From Candidatus Thorarchaeota archaeon (GTDB taxonomy: Archaea > Asgardarchaeota > Thorarchaeia > Thorarchaeales > Thorarchaeaceae): 64,000 nt of DNA. Under the pieces are notes generated by a model that saw only the letters and a list, made by a program, of their open reading frames with translations, was not told the DNA's origin and ran no database searches. Position numbers and translations under genes: made by a program. Shown here piece by piece: positions 12,511-35,369 of this stretch; the stretch's first letter is position 1; each line of letters begins with the position of its first letter. The DNA lies in contig CAVSBO010000016.1 of the NCBI GenBank assembly GCA_963726195.1, forward strand, positions 192,001-256,000, given 5' to 3'.

Positions 12511-13692
12511 TGACATACTCCTATGACCTAAGTCAAGGGGTTCTAGCGTCGGTTGCATTCATGACCGTTGCGCCTCTGGGGGTGCCAGTGCTCCCCTCCT
12601 CTGCATCCCTTTCTGCAAAGGATTGACTCACGCCCGATGATGCCTCTGCAATATTGAATGCCGCATTGGCATCGGCATGGTCAACGTGCCCGCAAACGGG
12701 ACACCTAAACTCCTTCTTGTTCCTGTCACCAATCGAGCCACACATGCTGCAAGTCTTGGACGTATATGCAGGATTGACGTATTCGACCTCTACTCCGAGC
12801 AGCCCGGCCTTGTATTCTATCATCTTTCTCAACTGATAGAACGACCAGCTGTGCAGGGAGTATCTGAACGTTCGAGTCGTTCTTGCGGTACCTCTGATAC
12901 CGCTCAGGTCTTCTAGTCGTATCCCACATCTGTGTTCGACAGCCGTATCCACGATCTTTCGGCTCATCTGGTGGTTGAGTTCTCTGACAATCATCGATTC
13001 CCTGTTCTTTATTCTCTTCAGTTTCCGGTGCTTTCCCATCCGTTGAAGTCTTCTTCTCATCTCCTTGTACTTCTTGTGAATATGATATGCCTTCCTTCCG
13101 AGTTTCAGGACCTTTCCTGTGGCAGGAATTGCGGCCACCATCGCATGGCCCGTTGCATTCAGATCGATACCGATGTATCCGTCCGGAGGGAATGGCTCTG
13201 CTTCCTTTACAGTCACGGAGACATACAGGTGTCTCCTGTCAACCTCTATCTGGTTGATCTTAGCAAAATCGCACCTGAACCCGTACGCGAACTGCACTCT
13301 TAGAGAAGGAATCCTTATTGTTCTCTTCTCGCGATTGCACTGTATGCCTTGGGACGGAATCGTTAGCTTGACAGAACGTACTTTCTTGGTCCGCCTGTTT
13401 CGTCCGTACTTCCTGAGTACCTGGTTCGCTATCACCGAGTTCAGGCCAATGTGTTTCACGATGGGAGTCGTTAATTGAACAGGCGAATTTACTGCAATCT
13501 CTGCAATTGCTTTCGCCTTTCTCAGCTCTTCGGAGAAGTCGTGGTCGTGCCGAAGCTTGTACGTCAGTATCACTGATTCTTCTCCTCCCTGATGTACTTC
13601 TTAATGCATACTATACGAATATACGCTCCTTCTGTACATCGACTGGGTGTATGGATTCATCCCACGGCTCAAGTCGTGGGCGTTCTCTCACT
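12511..13692 (-). mobile_element. IS200/IS605-family (IS1341-like, tnpB only) element
   Basis: Subterminal hairpins CCCACGGC-TCAA-GTCGTGGG (~13660-13680) and AGAACCCCTTGACTTAGGTCATAGGAGTATGTCA (~12511-12544) flank tnpB; no tnpA. Confidence 0.8.
12533..13573 (-). CDS. tnpB: TnpB RNA-guided nuclease, canonical RuvC
   Basis: GIDLN (RuvC-I), RLEDL (RuvC-II), CSMC/CPVC Zn finger, HADANAA (RuvC-III). Confidence 0.92.
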   Translation of the reverse strand: MILTYKLRHDHDFSEELRKAKAIAEIAVNSPVQLTTPIVKHIGLNSVIANQVLRKYGRNRRTKKVRSVKLTIPSQGIQCNREKRTIRIPSLRVQFAYGFRCDFAKINQIEVDRRHLYVSVTVKEAEPFPPDGYIGIDLNATGHAMVAAIPATGKVLKLGRKAYHIHKKYKEMRRRLQRMGKHRKLKRIKNRESMIVRELNHQMSRKIVDTAVEHRCGIRLEDLSGIRGTARTTRTFRYSLHSWSFYQLRKMIEYKAGLLGVEVEYVNPAYTSKTCSMCGSIGDRNKKEFRCPVCGHVDHADANAAFNIAEASSGVSQSFAERDAEEGSTGTPRGATVMNATDARTP

Positions 13693-23999: not shown

Positions 24000-24334
24000 A
24001 TGTTGGTGTCTGTGCGCCAGATGGAACATGCTCTGCATGAAGTCTTCATGCCGGACATGATGCGCACCGAGCAACACACACGGTCATGCATTAGTGGGAA
24101 GCTGCTCTGCCTGAGCCTTCGAATCGGACTTCTGAGGCCATAAAAGCGTTTTGATAAAACACAGAATTGCCCTGCAGTGTTGTGATGATTGCCTCATCGA
24201 GCACTATGTTTCAGTAGATCTTGAACGTATCTGTATGCCTCTCTTTGAAGTCGGTCCTGTTGGGGCCTTACCTTCGCACCGCATGACCGATTAGTTGGGA
24301 CATCTCCGAAGAGATATTCATTGGCGCCGATGTG

Positions 24335-27300
24335 TCACTCGGAGATTTCGATGCCCTCTTTTCTGAGTGCTTCGACTGCAAACTCAATGGTTTTGCTTAC
24401 GGTATCATCACTAACATTCAGAACACTGAGAACGTTCAACGACCTCCCCCGCGACAGACTCGTAGTCTAAGACGTGTGCCTTCAGCTGTTTCTTTCAGTA
24501 ATTCAATCACGACAACGCCCGTGGACGGCTCCGTGTCGCCCGTTTCGCCGAAACCTGCTGTCACAGTCAACACATACCCTTTGCTCCTTGTCCCAAACTC
24601 CACGCCGAACAGTTTCAGCTCAGGCCCACTTGGTCTCTCAACCTTTGTGGTCTTCGTCAGCGGAGATTCTTCGGATGCTTCTTCGTAGCTCTCTTCGATT
24701 TCCTCAGTGATTGCATTACTGAGTCGCTCATACTCCTCAATGCCAGGCGGCAACGGGACATCCCTAAGATCCCTGACATCGATATTGAGCTGATGACGGG
24801 TCTTCATACTAATATCCACCAGCTGTTCACACTCTGCTAGGAGCGCAACATCGTATATCCCCAGAGGACTGCGTTCAATGCAATGAAGTGCTGACTTCTT
24901 GACCAGTCCGTCCAAGACTACTGTCAAGTGCTTTTTTACACCCAGTTTCTTCAATCGTTCATTGACTTTGACCACAAGTGTGACGTCGTCGGCCTCCTTA
25001 GTCTCCAGCAGCTCTCGACAGGTGGCGGGCAAGACATAGCAGCCAAGAAGAAAGAATCGCCTATGTACCAAGGGTTTGAGACAGGTTGTGCCAACCCATT
25101 CATTCTTGCCCCTCGGTCTCTTGATTACGATGTCACCGTATTCTACGTCTTTGATGGGGTCCCACCTGAGAAGCGTGCCATCATCGGTTACAGGATACTT
25201 CCCTGACATACTGGGCTCTTTCAGCCATCCGACCACTTCATCGGTGTCTGGAGTTGTTCGAACGACGAACGGCTCGACATCCGATTCTGTCGCGTCTCGA
25301 TATTCCACTCTATACACTTGTTGTTTGACATCAATAGAGAACAACACACTTGACATCTTTTGCGGTTCCCTCCCACGCCTTGACTTCTTTCAATAGTCTT
25401 TTGACTGACTCACTGAGACCCGAGGGTTCGGGACCCGGTCTCAGATGCTGAATGGCACTATAGGCTTCAGGGCTCGGCTCAGAGAGCTTGAACCAGCGAA
25501 TTGGGAATGTTCTTGCCTCCGGCGGGGCACCATACTCAAGCATACCCATGCACGACCAACCTTCTCCCTCTTCCTCTTGAGTCTTCATCCATAGGAACTC
25601 CTGTTCCTCAAGAGAAGCAACAATGATTGGCATTCTGTTCCAGCTCTTCTGTGCAGTCTCGGCCGCTTGGCTCAAACGTTCAGGGTCTATCATACATCTG
25701 TACCAACTCAGCCGAAGGTCTAATGACTCCTGTCCCATGACCAGAGCCCCGAGCAATCTCCCTGTCGTCCTTTCAGGAAAAACGAGCCATATGTTGTAGC
25801 CGTCCTCCTGCTCTTCCCATAGCGCCTGCCCATAACGCTGAATCATTTGAACCGGCTTGTGTCTTGGAAGATTCTTCATACCGTTTGCCCTCCGGAGAAG
25901 GTTTGAGTAGATTGCTTGGTAATCATATCTTGAAACGAATTTCTGCCCGGGAGTCTTCTGTGGCTTGAAACCCATCTGGTAAAGCTGCCACTCTGCTACG
26001 GCCGACCAGAGCTGTGCCATCAACTGTGAGGCCGTGCCTTCGGTGGCTTTCTCCGCGGCTGCAAATACTGCGAGGAACAGGTTGTTGCCGTACAGGGAGA
26101 GAATGTCCTGATTGGCATTCACAACTTTCCATAGCGTTTCTCGGCTTTCCGAGTCAAGCACGTCAGCCAGATTCTGCCTTCTCTGGTTGAGCATCCGCCA
26201 TGCAAATTCTCGCTCGGTGTTGCTAAGAATGAGTCTCTTGATATCTCGTAAGTCCTCAAGAAGAGTGTTTTCTCCGGCGGGTACTGAGAGTGCCTTCCGG
26301 CAACTCCTGACAATGTCATTGCAGCAAATCTGCAGGTCACTCTTTGGCGAAACGACCCTCCTGAGGAAGTCAGCTGCGGATAACAGCCTTCTCAGTTCGC
26401 TTCTTCGGGTCTGGAGGGAATCAACTGCCGATTGGTCTGTCGGACCAGTCAACGGGGGCCTGCGACTGAAGCTGCGCCAGTCTTTGGATTTCTCGCAGGG
26501 TGGTGGAACGCTCCCGTACTCCCACCCCCTTGTTGCTTTACTCAGTTCGAAGTATGCTTTTTCAGATCGGCTTGGCTGAGGAGGGGGAAGCTCGGGTCGC
26601 AGGTGAAGCCTATCGCTCATGGGCCAACCGACCCTCGGTGACATCTTGGCGCCTATGACTCGCCACGCCGGTCTCTCAGAGCCCATTGGCTCAGCCACAG
26701 CCGCCCCAGCCCTTGGCCGGCCCAGACTGGGAATGAGAGTCATTGCACCACCCAGCATATCGGCAGCCTGTTCTTTAGTGACAGAAAGCGGGCCAAGACC
26801 CGAATCGGACGACAAGCCGAGACGATTGTACATCGGTATCGAAACCATGGTGGCTTCTAGCATCTCCAGTTTTCCAACTGTCTTCTTGCCCTTGGACAGT
26901 CCTCGAAATCTGCGTGCCCAATCGCTGAGATGAGGAACTAGGATTGTTTCTGAAAAGGGCGCTGCACTCGTGGGAGTGTCGTGTATAATCGAGCCGCATA
27001 TCAGTCCTACGCGGAGACTCTCCACCCGTAACCCGGGGAGCCATCGGCAGGTTCCATATTATCTCATCAATCTGCGAGCTTCTTGGGGAATCATAAGGTA
27101 GCGGCCTGACACAGCGACACTGGTACAGTGAACTCATTCCTGTGCGAGGTGTGCTTTCGTCAGTCCATATGATGCTTGTATTGCTCTTGGGGAGAACGCC
27201 GAGGAGCGTGTCCTCCATCATTGCAGTCAGGTGTTGGCGATGTCTTGGGACAAGCTGAGCCATCTCTGCCCAGCCACCTATGACGAACACGGTCTCGCCT

Positions 27301-29448
27301 GTACTGGCGTTCTTCACTTCTGACTTCACTGCATCAAACTCTGGCACTTTGCCACTGAGGATACACCCTGCGACTTCCGAATCGAGCCTCACAAATACAA
27401 TGCTCCGCAGAAGATGTCTCATATCCTTGTACTGTATTGGAGCAATCTTCCTCTTCTTGTTCAGGGTTTCCATGCCGAATCTTGCTTTGACGAGCTCGGT
27501 CGTGGGGAAGTCGCCGAGAATATTCAGCCAGACAATCCTCGGGCTACTATGTGATGCCATTATGGAATCGTTCAGATGATTCAACAGGTGCCAGTTCATA
27601 GAGATCCATGCCGCTGCCCGCCCGAATCCTGCTGGCGATGAAACAGGTATGTAGAGTGCTAGGTGCCTATCGTCTTTGACCCTGAACTGGAACGGGTTCT
27701 CGACTGAAACGCTGTCCAGTGGTGAGACCTTGTTCGGTGAATATGATGGTCGTTTTGAAGGGCAGAGAACGACTGCGATTCTCGGTGGTCTCTCAAGGTC
27801 ATCCTGTCTAGCTTCGGGTGCATACCAGACCCACCCGGATGCTTTCGATTCAGGTGATTGCAGATTGGCTTTGAGATAATCAATCAGCTCCTCGAACGCA
27901 CGAAGGACCCTTGATTGGCTCTGATGCGTATCTATGAGGATTACCCCTTTCTGAAGGAACTCGGGAGGGGCACTGTCCTCTGGAACCAAAGCGTAGTACT
28001 CTCGGAGCAGGCCACGTTCGTATGTGTCAAGCTGATTAAGTGTCGTGTTGGGCAGGATGGAGCCGACCGCCTCGTTCCACTCCTTTTCACTGAGGGTTGT
28101 CTTCCATAAGTAGGGAACAGGCAGCATGTCCCGTTTGCTCTTGCTCTCCTGTGAATAGAAATTGAAACTGATGGATGTTCTCGTCTTGAGCTCCAGAACC
28201 GTCACAGGTGTCCATATGGCCCCCCCAGAGACTCTCCTCCTGACGAAGAATGCGAGGTCTACCTGACCACCACCTTGTGGTGTCACAAGCGGAAGCTCCG
28301 CCACCACTATGATATGACCTGGTTTCTCCAGCATCGTGTCTCCGGAGAAGACTACGGACCTGACCGACGGTGGATGGTGAAGCCCCGAGAATAGGACCCT
28401 GTGCCAGTCGTTTCCCTCTTTCTGAATAAGGGTCGTCATCTTGCCCATGAGTTTCGTAACGTCTCTCATCAACAATTATCGCTTGGTCAATCATCTTGGC
28501 GATACGGGCACACTGCTTCTTGGCTTCTTCATCGTCTGTCGCGCTGATGACTTCAGTCGCCTTGGTTTTGAGCCAGCACGCATTCTGTGGGAGGAGTGCT
28601 TCATCAAGCATTTCGGTCGCACGCTTGCGTTTTCCTATGTTGCTCCCGTAGAGCGTGCGTATCTCGCGGGCGAGCCTGCGTAGCTCCTTGTCCGCATCTG
28701 GCCAGAAGTCTTTGCGCCCCGTTCTTTCTCCCGTATATACCCAATCGAGGAACGGCTTCAGCCTGTGAACGAGAAAGCGGATATACCCGTGGGCATCTGC
28801 AGAAGGAACATTGTAGATGAAGCACTGGCGGCAGAGTTCAATGACGTGCGCACGGATCATGTCGACAAAGTCCATCTCAGGAAGCGTCGGGTGCGAGAGT
28901 AGGTATGTGGGCCGCTTGGCGCTGCCCTTGTATCCCGCACGCCAGTAGACCTTCTTGACGACGTCAAGAGGCGTTCTTTCCGCCTCAAGATGCGGCAATA
29001 TTCTGACATTGTCGTGCCGGTACTCCCGGACCTGAAAGAACACTGGCTCAGGAAACGGATATCTCGTCACGGCCAACTCGCGCAGTACCGCACCAGCGAA
29101 GTTGATCAGCTCGTTCAGGGGGCCTATCGCGCCTTGTCGCCAGCTGTAGACCCGCTTGTGCTCATGGTTGCCGTATGGTTCTGTACTGTACCATACTATG
29201 TCGAGGTACAAGTGCCTCAAGTTAGGCTCAGCGTTCTGGAGCAGGGCGACTCCCTCAGAGGTGCGCGGGCCTACTGTTTTCAGTTGCTGTCCCAGCTGGG
29301 CCCACATGCGCAGTATGGCCTCGCAAAAGAACTTGGTTCGCTCGTTCTTCCTCCTGTTGGCCAGTTTGACAAGTGCAGACAGACCTGCATACAGGGCCTT
29401 CGCTTGGACTACTGACGGGCTGAATCTCGTCCTCTTGGCGTCCATCAA
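24335..29448 (-). CDS. Giant (~1,700 aa) hypothetical protein with a PD-(D/E)XK nuclease domain and a degenerate P-loop-like region; broken by about 5 indels
   Basis: Four overlapping ORFs (28087-29448, 26775-28475, 25331-27025, 24436-25356) join at single-base shifts; E..GQVDL..VLELKT..QLDTY motif; true C-terminus (..EALRKEGIEISE*) is supported by the paralogous fragment at 63390. Confidence 0.7.
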
Positions 29449-29691
29449 AGATGAGTTGAAAAGCAGCTTTATAAAGAAACCGACATTTTTTGGATTTCTC
29501 CGTTTGACAATCGTGGGCCTTATAATATCCCGATTGTCGGAAAACGCATGGATAATCTTGTTGGCTTAATAACTTTAAATAAACTAGTAACACAGCATGA
29601 ATACGAGTTCAAAACCTCCGGTAGAGACAGAAAAGCGAGTGAACTCATCCAAGGCGCACGTCTCAACTTTAAATAAACAGGGCGGTCGGCG
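29449..29691. promoter_or_regulatory. AT-rich divergent promoter region
   Basis: TATA-like TTTATAAA at 29468; duplicated AACTTTAAATAAAC at 29571 and 29665; inverted repeat GACAATCG/CGATTGTC at 29506-29538. Confidence 0.6.
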
Positions 29692-31383
29692 ATGAAAGAA
29701 TTCGGGCCAATCATCACGAGTGTGAAAATCCCCATACACAGGGACGACATGACACCTGTTCAGATGACGCGATTGTCACAGATTACAGGCCGTGACACTC
29801 GCGTAATCAAGGCCTACCTAGGCGTAATCGAACGCAACCAATCGCAACTGCGCACCGGCAGAAGAACTCGGCTCGACAGAGGAACACTCGACGAACTCAC
29901 ACTGACAACACGGCAATGCAAGAACAACAGAACATCAGTTCCTCATGATTTCAAAGCAAGATTTCCCAGAATGTCCACTAATGAGTTTGGACAGTGTCGT
30001 GACACAGCAATAGCGATGTGGACAAGCTATCTCGAACTCGGGGGCGCAAGGCCTCTAACCTCAAAGAACTACAAGCCCCGTAAGATCCCACGGTGCGTAT
30101 TCCCAAATTGCTTCAGTCTTGTCCGCGATTCATCGACAAGTAAGTACACACTCGAACTGCGCGATTCGCTTGACTCGACACGCAAAGGCTCCCGACAACA
30201 CGACAAGCTTTGCATACCTCTCTCTGTTTCGGATTACCATGAGACAAGACTCGGAGAGGGCGAAGTCAAGTCCGTCAGAGTAGTCAAAGACTCTCTCCAC
30301 AAGTGGTGGGCCGTCTTCTCAGTAAACCTCGAACCAGAACCACAGGATTCCCGCGGAAAGCAACCGGCAGTCTTGGCCATAGACTTGGGCATAAAGAAAG
30401 CAGCAACAACAGTGCTCCTTACGCAGAACGGCATCAAAGAAGTACGCTACTGGAAAGGAACCGAAAAGCTCCAACACATGGCCGCATATGATGCTGCAGT
30501 TGGAGCGCTCCAGAGAGCTAAAACACAGCCGTCTGACCATAACAACGTCCCGCCATCGCTAACCGAGAAGCTCTCCAAGTTGCGTCACAAGCGGGCGAAC
30601 ATCAGCAGAGAGTACGACCGGAAGCTGGTCAAAGACATATCCCAATACGCCCTTGAGCTGAACAAGACATACAATCTATACGTTGCCATAGGCCGCCTTT
30701 CTGGAATCAGGAACCGAGCTCGAAAAGGAAACTTCCAAGGGCCTCGCTTTCGAGGCATGATTCACCGATGGTCGTTTGCCAGAGTCAGTGACTCATTTGA
30801 GCATAAACTCGCAACCCTCGGACTTAGTACACGAAGATTCCGCCGCGTTGCTGAGACCTGGACCAGCCGTGTGTGTCACAGGTGCGGGCATGTCGGCTAC
30901 AGACCTAAGCAGAGTCTCTTCATATGCGGCACCTGTGGGCTCCATACCAACGCAGACCTGAATGCTGCCGTCAACATTGGACGACGGCTTATCATGCTCA
31001 TTCCCGCTCTGCGGGATGAGACCAAGGGACTAGGAATGTCGCTTCCTCCTTGGAGGAAAGCTGCGCCAAAAGCCCCAAGGGGCAGAAACCCTAAGGGGAA
31101 GTCCCTGCCCTCCCAGAGGTCGCCCGCCTCGTTCAAAGGAGGGCCCGTGGCTGCCGACCGTGCTCAAATGCATTTGATAATGCCTGAGTGCGGCGAAGAC
31201 CCCGCCATGGAAAAGACTGTGGAAAGACCGTCTGCTCCCGGATCCACCGGCGATTCCGGGACGAATCAGCAGCAGAAGGAAACCACGCACCGGGAGAGGA
31301 ACAAAGTTCCAGAAATCTCGGGCAAAGCTCACGCACAGGCATTGGGACAACTCCCATTGTCAGACTGGCGACAGCCGTCATGA
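29692..31383 (+). CDS. tnpB: TnpB-family nuclease with rearranged (Fanzor-type) RuvC-II and a long C-terminal tail
   Basis: AIDLG (RuvC-I D at 30382), VAIGRL (G in place of E, 30691), VAETWTSRVC (alternative E, 30853), CHRC/CGTC, NADLNAA (RuvC-III D at 30955). Confidence 0.88.
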   Translation: MKEFGPIITSVKIPIHRDDMTPVQMTRLSQITGRDTRVIKAYLGVIERNQSQLRTGRRTRLDRGTLDELTLTTRQCKNNRTSVPHDFKARFPRMSTNEFGQCRDTAIAMWTSYLELGGARPLTSKNYKPRKIPRCVFPNCFSLVRDSSTSKYTLELRDSLDSTRKGSRQHDKLCIPLSVSDYHETRLGEGEVKSVRVVKDSLHKWWAVFSVNLEPEPQDSRGKQPAVLAIDLGIKKAATTVLLTQNGIKEVRYWKGTEKLQHMAAYDAAVGALQRAKTQPSDHNNVPPSLTEKLSKLRHKRANISREYDRKLVKDISQYALELNKTYNLYVAIGRLSGIRNRARKGNFQGPRFRGMIHRWSFARVSDSFEHKLATLGLSTRRFRRVAETWTSRVCHRCGHVGYRPKQSLFICGTCGLHTNADLNAAVNIGRRLIMLIPALRDETKGLGMSLPPWRKAAPKAPRGRNPKGKSLPSQRSPASFKGGPVAADRAQMHLIMPECGEDPAMEKTVERPSAPGSTGDSGTNQQQKETTHRERNKVPEISGKAHAQALGQLPLSDWRQPS

Positions 31384-31445
31384 GAAGGGTGGAACACAGA
31401 AGCATCTATGTTGAGTCCACTCACCCAACAAAAGCAGAGTCTTCG
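31025..31445 (+). ncRNA. Putative omega-RNA overlapping the tnpB 3' end (scaffold to 31424, then putative guide)
   Basis: Homologous and covarying with 9688-10103; homology stops at CACTCAC 31424. Confidence 0.7.
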
Positions 31446-31508
31446 ACAACTTTAATAGAAAACGTCCGAGGGGTCGTTTCGCGCGAGGACTACGGTGTAT
31501 GTTCGAAC

Positions 31509-31586
31509 GCCCCTGTAGTGTAGTCCGGTCTAGCATAGGCGACTGTCACTCGTCTAACCCGGGTTCAAATCCCGGCGGGGGCGCCA
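31509..31586 (+). tRNA. tRNA-Asp(GTC)
   Basis: GCCCCTG acceptor, GGCGA-CTGTCAC-TCGTC, GGTTCAAATCC, CCA. Confidence 0.95.
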
Positions 31587-31646
31587 CTTCTTCTGGGCCG
31601 CAAGCGACAAGTGAGCGATGACTACGTCATTTCGGTGTGATATTCT

Positions 31647-32650
31647 GTGACTCAGTTCCTAGATGCTTGTTACCATGCGATAGCAAAACAGGCGACATCA
31701 ATACCAGATACCATTAGGGCTGTGAAAGATGACGACCTTCGGCCTCTATCTGGTAAGCAATTCGTCCTGCTGCTTGGATGTGGCGATTCCTATGCGGTCG
31801 CTGAGTATGGTAAATGGGCACTTCTAATGTCTGGATTCAACGCGGTTTCTATCTCGCCTCCCGAGCTACATAGACTCTATATGAAACCGAATTGTGCAGT
31901 CATAGGAGTGAGCGCCTCGGGCCGCAGTCTCGTGACGATTGAGGCGCTGGAGTTTGCTAGGTCATTGAGTGCTACAACCGTCGCACTGACTGATAATCCA
32001 ACTGGAAAAGTCGCTCAAACTGCAGATGTACTTTGGCAGACTCGATCAGGCATGGAATCTTACAATATCAGCCCGTCTGCCCCCACTACTGCAGCACTGG
32101 CGTATCTTCTCGCCCTCGCCTCAAGGCTTCCAAGTCCCATTCAGAATAATCTTCAGCACGATTGCCATATTCTGGAGTCTAGAGCAGAAGAAATCATTCG
32201 CTGGTCGGAACAGCAGGGCATTGCCATCTCCAAGCTGAGCTCAACGAGGCGGTCTCCTGTACATAGTCTCAGATGGACCAAACTACGTCGCTGCTCAGAT
32301 TGGCATGATGAAATTCGATGAATTCTCAATCGTGAAGGGTCTTGCAGTCTTGAAGGAGGAGTTTCAGCACCATTACAACCTCTCGATTAAGAAGGATGAA
32401 CGGGCAGTTCTTGTTCTCGACAACCCTGTCTCGTCCAAAGACGAAAGCTTCTCGGCGGTCATCCAAAGCAAATTGGAAATGAAGACATACCTCCTGCATA
32501 CCGGTACGCTGGGCCTTGTGACGCCCCTTGCACAGGCAATCCCGAATACGATTGCGTTACAGATGGCTTCGTACCATGTCGTACGGAAGGCATGACCCAA
32601 AGAAGAGCGGCTTCAAACAACCACATGCTGATGCGTTCAAGATTTATTGA
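31647..32650 (+). CDS. Double SIS-domain sugar isomerase/aminotransferase-like protein (indels near 32250 and 32590)
   Basis: 'LLGCGDSYA', 'GVSASGRS', 'GPNYVAAQIGMMKFDE', 'EEFQH'. Confidence 0.75.
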
Positions 32651-33459: not shown

Positions 33460-34905
33460 GTTCTACTCGGGTTTCAACCTATAGTAGGCACAGGTAGGTA
33501 TGCGTCAGCATACCTATCGTATCCCACATAGATCTGGGGCTTCACCGCATCATCTAGGAGCCTCACGAGTTCATCGGCTCCTTTCCGCTCCGCCCCCGTC
33601 AGGACGTACCCACCCACGTGCAGTGTCGGCAGGATGTTTGCATCCCACCGCTCCTTCTCATGGGGAACGCCCTCCATCCTCAGGTAGAGGTTAATCGCTG
33701 CGTTGAGCTGCCTGTCTATCTTCAGCCCACAGTTCCCGCACTCGAAGACCGCTCCTGTTCTTAGGTCTTTGTTTACCCACCCGCATCTGGAGCACTTCTT
33801 CGAGGTAAACTGCGGAGACAACTCTTCAACAGCGCCACCTTCCGCAACCCGTTCTCATGATCCCGCGCCAGTCCGTTCTCGCCAACCTACGGTTCCACGT
33901 TCTCGAACGCGTGTATATCTTCTCCTTTCTCAGTGCCTCGAAGCCGCTCCTCCTCGAGAACACACGAATCGCTCTCGCAATCTCAACCTGATGCTTCCTC
34001 GCACGGTTCCTTTCCCTTCTCGCTGTATTTTGTGAGGACTCTCTTCATCCTCTTACACTTCGAAGCCTTTCTCTGCACGCTGCGCCTTTTCTCGAAGCTC
34101 GATATGTGGGTCGACACGAGTCTCCTCGTGTCTATCTTCACCCACCCTGTCTCAGGGCTGTAACCATCCAGGGATAGCATGTTCGAGTCCCAAGCTACCG
34201 CCTCAGCAGTTTTTTTCTCCTCCTCTTCTGCCACATGGATGGGCAGGTATATTCTATCGGGCGTGATGACGGGTTCGCCCAAGCCCACGGAGGATACATT
34301 GTCGGGCAGCTTGAAGTAACGTCGGGAGAGGTCGATATAGGCGAACTCGCGTGGCCTCAGGGTGATCCTGAGTGTGTCCCCCTCAAGTTTGAGAAGGGTC
34401 TGCTTGACCCGCAAAAAGAATCTCCCCGAATGTGGACATTCCCTTCTTCTCTCGCCCTTGTCATAGTTTCTTTTCCACGAAGCCATAATACTGAAGGCGG
34501 TCTTCATGGCGGAGTCAATCCAGTGAGCGGCATAGCGCCACTCTTCCAAGCATTTGTTTCTCAGCTCCCGCTTGAAGGCGTTGTCCTTCCTGTACTTGGG
34601 GTAGAGCCTGTACTGCTTCTTTCCTTTGATCTGGTGCTTCTTCCACTCTGTCGTCTGCCAGATGCACTGCAGCATAGTGTTGAGGATGGTATTGTAGCCA
34701 GCCATTAGACCGTTGAGTGCTTCGCCCTGGTTATGGCTGAGTGAATAGGTCTTTAGCGCTTTCAACGACCTCCTCGTACTCGTGGCTCCTGAGACCGTAG
34801 GGTGCACACCTGAGAGAATACAGGCTTCTTTCAGTGTGTAAAGTCTTCCAGGTCTACCTGAATTTGTATGACCTATACCTATGTAAACCCATATAGACCG
34901 GAACT
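33460..34905 (-). mobile_element. IS607-like element: internally deleted tnpA remnant plus frameshifted tnpB (33474-34765)
   Basis: HTH start 'RLYTLKEACILSGVHP' joined to the TnpA C-terminus 'YGLRSHEYEEVV'; tnpB motifs VAWDSN, GFEAL, CSRC/CGNC, DRQLNAA; short spaced repeats at 34850-34900; ends approximate. Confidence 0.75.
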
Positions 34906-34907
34906 GT

Positions 34908-35207
34908 TTACGAGGCGTCCTTAGAGACCGGGGCTTCTGTTCGAGCGCCCAACACGACCTCCAAGTGCAGAAAGCTTGCACTCAAGCGCTCAAAGTTGGT
35001 CGGAACAGTAAACTCGCCTACCCCCAACGAGTTCAATGCGGTTTCAACTTTGGCTGTGGTCAGCTTGAAGTTATCCTCGGATTTGAAAGCGATTAGAACT
35101 CGCTCGTGCTCCTGATCGGGCATCTTGAAGACTGAGTGTACGGGAATGCCGAGGTCTCTCAGGCCAGACTTGATCTTGGACTCGATTGCATCCATTTCTG
35201 TAACCAT
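34908..35207 (-). CDS. Hypothetical protein (~99 aa)
   Basis: Plausible globular ORF downstream of tRNA-Tyr; the upstream part of the computed ORF overlaps the tRNA and was discarded. Confidence 0.55.
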   Translation of the reverse strand: MVTEMDAIESKIKSGLRDLGIPVHSVFKMPDQEHERVLIAFKSEDNFKLTTAKVETALNSLGVGEFTVPTNFERLSASFLHLEVVLGARTEAPVSKDAS

Positions 35208-35292: not shown

Positions 35293-35369
35293 TGGTCGGG
35301 ATGGCCGGATTTGAACCGGCAACCAATGGATCTACAGTCCATAGCTCTGCCAGATTGAGCTACATCCCG
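35293..35369 (-). tRNA. tRNA-Tyr(GTA)
   Basis: CGGGATG acceptor (C1-G72), ATGGA-CTGTAGA-TCCAT, CCA. Confidence 0.95.

Follow-up and report, generated by a model that had tools for sequence, protein, structure and literature searches.

Several branches of the TnpB nucleases with a rearranged RuvC-II residue have been catalogued, some of them archaeal only (Altae-Tran 2023, PMC10691335). The alternative glutamate ('Ealt') of such proteins precedes the first CxxC by six residues (ExxxxxxCxxC), within the search pattern D{P}G-x(120-160)-ExxxxxxCxxC-x(12-18)-CxxC-x(4-8)-D (Yoon 2023, PMC10711439), and Fanzors and the 'pro-Fanzors' from which they descend, which are cyanobacterial IS607 elements, are defined by Ealt plus a near-exclusive D-P-G motif at RuvC-I (PMC10711439). 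In ApmFanzor the E467A mutant is inactive, so the alternative glutamate is essential, and an archaeal Ealt protein, TvTnpB, carries out cleavage of DNA that depends on a target-adjacent motif (TAM), without collateral activity (Jiang 2023, PMC10530073). The solved triad of ApmFz2 is D324-E467-D501, with 34 residues between the glutamate and the last aspartate (PMC11832414). Furthermore, two TnpB groups linked to Asgard archaea carry a variable stretch and then GTTCACTCA downstream of tnpB (PMC10691335). Here, a tnpB gene is described that is encoded at positions 29692-31383 (plus strand) of a 64,000-nucleotide (nt) stretch of contig CAVSBO010000016.1 from a Candidatus Thorarchaeota archaeon; this whole stretch, to which all coordinates refer, is called the window. 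Direct observations of residue conservation, clade membership, fold, RNA covariation and insertion make it probable that the gene encodes an intact Ealt-type TnpB, guided by an omega-RNA and carried in a slowly mobile, Thorarchaeota-specific element, for which nuclease activity, a guide and a role in retention may be proposed. What is less expected about the locus is the setting of the gene, with a giant partner gene, a guide-RNA scaffold and a promoter-like repeat that matches itself.

The tnpB open reading frame (ORF) encodes 563 aa without an internal stop; residues 1 to ~450 form the folded nuclease (WED, REC, RuvC and TNB), and residues ~451-563 are read-through of the omega-RNA gene. The protein matches the Cas12f1-like TNB domain of Pfam (PF07282; 4.8e-12, residues 381-429). 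In a BLASTP comparison with the window's canonical TnpB (12533-13573, minus strand), VAIGRLSGIR pairs with IRLEDLSGIR and VAETWTS with VNPAYTS; Gly334 (codon 30691-30693) falls on the canonical RuvC-II glutamate, and the register does not change when the family profile is aligned to Cas12f chains of solved structure. The two alignments agree with a preliminary description of this DNA, which had reported the ORF coordinates, a glycine at the canonical RuvC-II site and a glutamate 54 residues later (Glu388, codon 30853-30855, in VAETWTSRVC). The RuvC-I aspartate is Asp231 (codon 30382-30384), in the motif AIDLGIKK (D-L-G), and the RuvC-III aspartate is Asp422 (codon 30955-30957), in a NADLN motif of the NADxN type, 34 residues after Glu388. 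The zinc finger (30874-30936), which lies within the Pfam TNB match, has the form CxxC-13 residues-CxxC (Cys395, Cys398, Cys412 and Cys415), and Glu388 stands six residues ahead of Cys395.

A word-indexed search returned >120 homologs of full length (48-68% identity, ~560-600 aa), and in the 30 that were aligned D231, G334, E388, D422, C395, C398, C412 and C415 are all invariant; D231 is invariant in both family alignments, in which Leu232 of the D-L-G motif is at least 90% conserved. The preliminary description had regarded the aspartate of RuvC-I and that of RuvC-III as intact, which this conservation confirms, and had named a lack of conservation of the alternative glutamate in close homologs as a possible refutation; the residue is invariant in the 30 homologs and nearly universal in ~100 distant relatives. 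In a codon alignment of 43 ORFs, the identities at codon positions 1, 2 and 3 are ~0.6, 0.7 and 0.35 over residues 1-420, indicating purifying selection on the protein. Judged from conservation, the protein is likely an active nuclease, because Glu388 is invariant, occupies the published Ealt position, is spaced from Asp422 as in ApmFz2, and belongs to a gene with protein-type codon constraint. The RuvC triad would then be D231-E388-D422, with the glutamate supplied after the fifth RNase H strand and before the zinc finger, and not from the fourth strand, where Gly334 now stands.

To place the family, 1.84 billion representatives were searched by profile; 6,203 matched at E<=1e-3, and the best 150 were aligned to the family hidden Markov model. 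Among these best 150 of 6,203, the canonical position is held by a non-acidic residue (mostly Gly, also Ser, His or another) in nearly all sequences spanning the sites, which also carry 'xxExxTSxxC' before the zinc finger, that is, a glutamate six residues before CxxC, and only two (P0292 and P0312) have the canonical layout. The Gly/alternative-Glu layout is common to ~100 increasingly distant representatives, so that it came to the Asgard family by descent within a large clade and is not an innovation of that family. As judged from these sequences, it is the ordinary hallmark of the large, described clade known as Ealt, TnpB2 or RIIr. The Thorarchaeal TnpB matches the Ealt pattern with gaps of 154, 13 and 6 residues, and at RuvC-I it reads I-D-L-G and not the D-P-G of Fanzors and pro-Fanzors. 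The named homologs are all from metagenome-assembled genomes annotated as Thorarchaeota or Promethearchaeota, within the Asgard kingdom Promethearchaeati, and not from a eukaryote, a giant virus or a cyanobacterial IS607 element, which is in keeping with the Asgard host proposed at the outset.

The fold of the protein was modelled with AlphaFold2 from an 85-sequence alignment (predicted local distance difference test score (pLDDT) 84.2, predicted template modelling score 0.78), with a pLDDT mostly >90 for residues 1-450 and <50 for residues 471-563. In the model, Gly334 closes the beta-strand of residues 327-335 and Glu388 directly follows that of residues 383-387, so that the shift of the glutamate would be a relocation from beta-4 to beta-5, as published for the alternative-Glu clade. 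Foldseek matched residues 1-450, over ~455 columns, to AsCas12f and OsCas12f (both E ~1e-18), ISFba1 TnpB, ApmFanzor2 (5.9e-13) and ISDra2 TnpB, and full-length matches to Cas12f, TnpB and Fanzor2 ranged from 1e-18 to 1e-8. When the family profile was compared with solved chains, Cas12f scored 3.5e-14 versus 1.2e-6 for Fanzor2, and SpuFz1 had no match at E<=1. Among solved structures, the protein stands closest to those of Cas12f and not to Fanzors, in sequence as well as in fold. The N-terminal ~200 aa, which had been described as unlike ordinary TnpB, are indeed divergent in sequence; however, in the model they are ordinary WED and REC domains, because residues 1-450 fold at pLDDT >90 and align structurally to Cas12f, TnpB and Fanzor2.

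Beyond residue ~450 the codon periodicity is lost, and in the 43-ORF alignment the identity over residues 451-563 is ~0.53-0.60 at all three codon positions. A conserved nucleotide block (...CTGGTGACAGCAGTCATGAGGAGGGTGGAACACAGAAGT) is present in 19 loci, and the ORF stop falls before, inside or after it. The last ~110 codons are conserved as RNA, not as protein, in the form of a covarying omega-RNA scaffold of ~330 nt (31073-31399, plus strand), a multi-helix structure that overlaps the 3' end of the ORF. RNAalifold, applied to 37 loci, predicted 68 pairs between 31073 and 31399, with compensatory double changes in 56 of the 68 and with 10-20 sequences changed on both sides of many pairs; the prediction includes a long-range helix on the plus strand (CUGUG at 31217-31221 with CACAG at 31395-31399). 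No Rfam family matches the omega-RNA. The scaffold is followed by a terminal hairpin (31404-31432, plus strand) around the conserved GTCCACTCAC (31415-31424). The window motif, GTCCACTCA, stands at 31415-31423, 32 nt past the tnpB stop, and the consensus in the 37 loci is GTTCACTCAC. The hairpin arms vary yet pair, flanking the conserved motif, and in an arm-swap test stability was higher for the native pairs of arms than for exchanged ones (z = -5.7; 0 of 2000 permutations matched the native stability). The stretch before GTTCACTCA was also considered as a 'hypervariable spacer'; this was rejected because the stretch forms base pairs with nucleotides that follow the motif.

The guide would be provided by a large omega-RNA (~330-370 nt) transcribed from the gene's own 3' end, which would run through the terminal hairpin with its GTTCACTCAC loop into the flanking DNA, here the tRNA-Asp promoter. 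The predicted guide segment (31444-31463, plus strand; CGACAACTTTAATAG...) is host DNA to the right of the element, at the point where the empty-site homology of three same-genus genomes starts, and, by analogy with the canonical TnpB model, this segment may serve as the omega-RNA guide. As a separate observation, three homologs (P0054, P0087 and P0100; alignment columns 640-804) have the C-terminal 'tail' (DLAMEKTMExPSA...AGDSSHEEG) twice, so that a part of the omega-RNA region is duplicated in tandem.

This is a patchy, multi-copy family restricted to Thorarchaeota: it occurs in 21 of 41 relatives at 1-10 copies each, and some copies are fragments or contain in-frame stops. Copies with shared ends and different flanks (L039/L058, 93.8% identity; L043/L063, 82.5%) define a unit of ~1.9 kb. 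Although the window genome has one copy of the tnpB family, a domesticated single-copy host gene was rejected family-wide, given the 1-10 copies per genome, the patchiness and the fragments. Across 21 loci (+/-7 kb) the sole recurrent neighbour is a giant protein, and the element occurs either alone (~1.9 kb) or head-to-head with this ~1,700-aa protein, both being present here in a 7.3-kb island. The TnpB may have the usual role of such proteins, cutting the empty or rejoined site so that the element is retained. One subgroup (L037-L042, in G005, G019, G006, G004, G011 and G012) occupies, in six genera, a position upstream of one common set of host genes (those for a FlpD/MvhD-like protein, a ribbon-helix-helix-PIN toxin-antitoxin pair, an HD-domain protein and an FTR1 permease), which suggests either long vertical retention or site-specific insertion.

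Several additional features of the family were observed. A distant subfamily in the genome G028 (~35% identity, ~490 aa) has three copies of ~1.78 kb (L047, L048 and L049) that are 88-89% mutually identical and are bounded by terminal inverted repeats of ~28 nt (CATGGTAAATTTTCCCCGCTTTCCCCAC and its complement); these copies have no upstream block of the kind described below and no obvious target-site duplication. In four genomes the right end of the element adjoins the 3' end of tRNA-Gly(TCC) (L046, L064, L066 and L050), in two others a tRNA-Val or tRNA-Leu gene lies a few hundred nt upstream of a family copy (L053 and L059), and in the window tRNA-Asp (31509-31586) lies 65 nt downstream of the element; the proximity of family copies to tRNA genes looks above chance. 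A second fragment of the right-end (RE) terminus (GAAAYGGRTYGGTGCATRCATCC) is found 45-50 nt to the right of the right end in L058 and L037; it could be what is left of an earlier copy, or could mark a preferred target. A downstream array of repeated RE-like termini is not general.

It should be noted that a number of observations weigh against an active, mobile Ealt-type TnpB at this locus. The match to the NCBIfam model guided_TnpB reaches 95 bits over residues 181-432, just below the curated cut-off of 100; the geometry proposed for the D231-E388-D422 triad is derived from strand topology in the model; and the ends of the omega-RNA and the identity of its guide are predicted rather than observed. 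As to recent activity, neither the single copy in the window genome nor the 78-89% identity of the closest within-genome pairs in other genomes gives evidence of it, and for the syntenic subgroup in six genera long vertical retention is a better fit than active transposition. Finally, no TnpA (Y1 or serine) recurs beside the family in the 21 loci (+/-7 kb); most TnpBs occur solo, and the lack of a recurrent TnpA is therefore compatible with TnpB membership.

The tnpB unit and the giant gene together make up the 7.3-kb island (24164-31443), which lies between a tRNA-Lys region and tRNA-Asp and has its left edge between 24164 and 24436. The island is absent from three same-genus genomes (G002:C63, G003:C52 and G001:C35; L072-L074), in which the left flank (to 24163) and the right flank (from 31444) are only 112-207 nt apart, and the empty-site interval spans the tRNA-Lys/sRNA region to the tRNA-Asp promoter. 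With the flanks so close together in three congeners, 24164-31443 is an insertion directly upstream of the tRNA-Asp promoter. No island-level terminal repeats and no end motifs beyond the giant gene were found, and at the left junction the 112-nt spacer of G002 had no significant match in 24164-24520. A target-site duplication of the whole unit was considered and rejected: in other loci the right flank carries no further copy of the direct repeat (DR) described below, and in the window the sequence that it resembles there is the tRNA-Asp promoter, which the empty sites have as well.

The giant gene (24436-29448, minus strand) is oriented divergently from tnpB and is split in the window into four overlapping ORFs (24436-25356, 25331-27025, 26775-28475 and 28087-29448), all of which fall in one protein cluster. 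Its homologs have 1,410-1,880 aa (~1,700) and lie head-to-head with tnpB, ~250 nt upstream, in 13 of the 21 loci; intact homologs exist, e.g., L035:1483-6564:- (P0122). The giant protein has no Pfam, PDB or PADLOC match, and its homologs are all 'hypothetical' Thorarchaeota proteins. It contains a conserved motif, E...GRADLVVF...D.KTK, that is PD-(D/E)xK-like (E321, D334 and K364 in P0122), and a model of the first 1,000 aa (pLDDT 84.7) shows helical and PD-(D/E)xK-like domains and one resembling RecA, RAD51 paralogs, RadA and KaiC by Foldseek; the P-loop position of the RecA-like domain reads SASxSGxTAA, without the lysine. No signal of Cas1 was obtained in the giant protein by Pfam, PDB profile or PADLOC, and none was among the top 50 fold matches of residues 1-1000. 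The neighbouring SIS-domain gene (31647-32595, plus strand) also appears to be split, into overlapping ORFs of 224 and 96 aa, which, alongside the split of the giant gene, hints at assembly indels in the window genome; the state of the giant gene may reflect either such indels or real decay. Further downstream lies a second TnpB-like gene (33474-34981, minus strand), which consists of a 332-aa N-terminal ORF with no Pfam match and a 115-aa C-terminal ORF with a TNB domain (PF07282, 1.3e-12) and is frameshifted or decayed; tRNA-Tyr (35293-35369, minus strand) lies just past it.

A block of ~95 nt precedes tnpB in nearly all loci, and in the window it occupies 29565-29678 (plus strand), ahead of the ATG at 29692. 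The block begins with CTT(A/C)AT (CTTAAT, 29565-29570), followed by a first direct repeat of 9-15 nt (DR1; AACTTTAAATAAAC, 29571-29584) that resembles the B recognition element (BRE) and TATA box of a promoter, and, after ~20 nt, by GTRYGAGTTCAAAACC (GAGTTCAAAACC in the window, 29605-29616). There follow an inverted RE motif, GAGTGAAC (29637-29644), an RE-like ...CAGGTCRG, and an exact second repeat (DR2; AACTTTAAATAAAC, 29665-29678), with the tnpB start 15-30 nt further on; the likeness of the GAGTGAAC inverted repeat to the RE hairpin extends over ~15-25 nt. DR1 and DR2 are exact copies of each other, 9-15 nt long and 92-105 nt apart, in 33 loci, and their sequence differs between loci: the mean longest common substring of DR1 and DR2 is 12.7 within a locus and 6.3 across loci. 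The onset of DR1 is sharp after CTTMAT, and that of DR2 is sharp after GGTCRG. Two loci with 88% identity carry repeats that differ from each other at 3-4 of 12 positions, the change having affected DR1 and DR2 alike, and across the 33 loci the pair varies more rapidly than the sequence around it. Copies with different flanks place DR2 just within the left end of the ~1.9-kb unit and DR1 just beyond it, and in the window the pair is the sole direct repeat of at least 14 nt in the island.

The geometry of DR1 and DR2 resembles that of a TAM and protospacer on one side and of a scaffold end and guide on the other. An active nuclease might therefore possess a second, built-in guide, in which an RNA ending in ...CAGGTCRG and DR2 targets CTT(A/C)AT and DR1 outside the left end of the unit, either for autoregulation or to bring the tnpB unit into place next to the giant-gene element. 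The exactness of the repeats within loci and their divergence between loci, their sharp starts, their concerted change and their placement on either side of the left end, as the only direct repeat of that length in the island, all fit such a guide. However, both copies are promoter-like, and a duplicated promoter would be simpler, yet would leave the concerted change unexplained; only ~80 nt of the block precede DR2, versus a 330-nt scaffold; one reconstructed empty site has TAGTC/TACTC, not CTTMAT, 5' of the real target; and the motif before DR2 in the window is degenerate (CACGTCTC). The built-in guide is accordingly regarded as unlikely, and the same modest chance is given to a truncated self-match through which an intact TnpB could repress a promoter in the locus that encodes it or dock the unit next to the giant-gene element. 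If true, a transposon nuclease would be using RNA guidance for self-regulation or targeting, and it would be coupled to a partner of ~1,700 aa without a described homolog.

A nuclease-dead or binding-only protein, acting like TldR as an RNA-guided regulator, is a very unlikely alternative to the active Ealt-type TnpB. Such a protein would account for the missing canonical RuvC-II glutamate and for the subgroup held at a syntenic host locus across genera, and the DR1/DR2 geometry can be read as a short guide-target match (10-15 nt) on promoter-like sequence, a length that would favour binding over cutting. Inactivated TnpB branches, however, lose the triad (Altae-Tran 2023, PMC10691335), whereas here D231, E388, D422 and the zinc finger are invariant; the family is multi-copy and patchy and leaves fragments, like a mobile element; and DNA cleavage is documented for enzymes of this layout (PMC10530073). 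The proposal of the preliminary description, a Fanzor progenitor or a rearrangement that arose independently in Asgard archaea and bears on Fanzor origin, is highly improbable, because the Asgard host, the ApmFz2-like glutamate position and spacing (PMC11832414) and the structural match to ApmFz2 are set against a D-L-G motif where Fanzors and pro-Fanzors, the latter being cyanobacterial IS607 elements, have D-P-G (PMC10711439), a layout inherited clade-wide, solved relatives that are nearest to Cas12f, and no recurrent serine recombinase neighbour across 21 loci. The rearranged RuvC site alone adds little, since archaeal alternative-Glu TnpBs are already catalogued and one of them cuts DNA; the family tells nothing about how Fanzors arose and does not exemplify a new rearrangement. 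The value of the locus lies instead in its compact core of ~450 aa, a strongly covarying ~330-nt scaffold, a ~1,700-aa family-specific partner unrecognised by databases, clean empty sites that define the 7.3-kb insertion, and a co-varying, guide-target-like repeat pair. Altogether, these features make it a tractable case for the movement of TnpA-less TnpB elements and for self-regulation or self-targeting by transposon nucleases.

When compared with named systems, the Thorarchaeal TnpB shares with the TnpB2 (Jiang 2023, e.g., TvTnpB of Thermoplasma volcanium), Ealt (Yoon 2023) and RIIr (Altae-Tran 2023) proteins the glycine at the canonical glutamate position, the alternative glutamate six residues before CxxC, the NADxN RuvC-III motif, the C4 zinc finger, an omega-RNA that overlaps the 3' end of the gene, and an archaeal host. 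It differs from them in its 563 aa, including ~110 codons of RNA read-through, in its larger, covarying scaffold of ~330 nt, and in having a giant partner protein instead of an adjacent Y1 or serine TnpA. With Fanzor2 (ApmFz2, PDB 9B0L) and the pro-Fanzor IS607 TnpBs it has in common the relocated glutamate, the 34-residue spacing from this glutamate to the RuvC-III aspartate and the TnpB fold; in contrast to them, it carries D-L-G, has no IS607 serine recombinase and comes from a host that is neither eukaryotic nor viral nor cyanobacterial, and its profile similarity to Fanzor2 is much weaker than that to Cas12f. The Cas12f proteins (AsCas12f, 8J3R; OsCas12f, 9NZQ) are the best sequence and structure matches across the ~450-aa core; however, they have the canonical RuvC-II glutamate and a CRISPR array, and no array was found here in 24000-32600 when direct repeats of at least 14 nt within 400 nt were sought. 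That search returned only the two-copy DR pair, so the adjacent array that marks Cas12f is lacking. Finally, the family resembles the 'Cas1H-Asgard-1/2' TnpB groups (PMC10691335) in being Asgard-restricted, in having a variable stretch followed by GTTCACTCA, and in its repeat-flanked loci; it differs in that the Asgard Cas1 partner by which these groups are defined was not detected by Pfam, PDB profile or PADLOC, and in that the 'hypervariable' stretch here behaves like a hairpin's 5' arm and not like a spacer. Given GTCCACTCA in the window and the GTTCACTCAC consensus in 37 loci, the family is very probably one of these Asgard TnpB groups of Altae-Tran and hence already listed.

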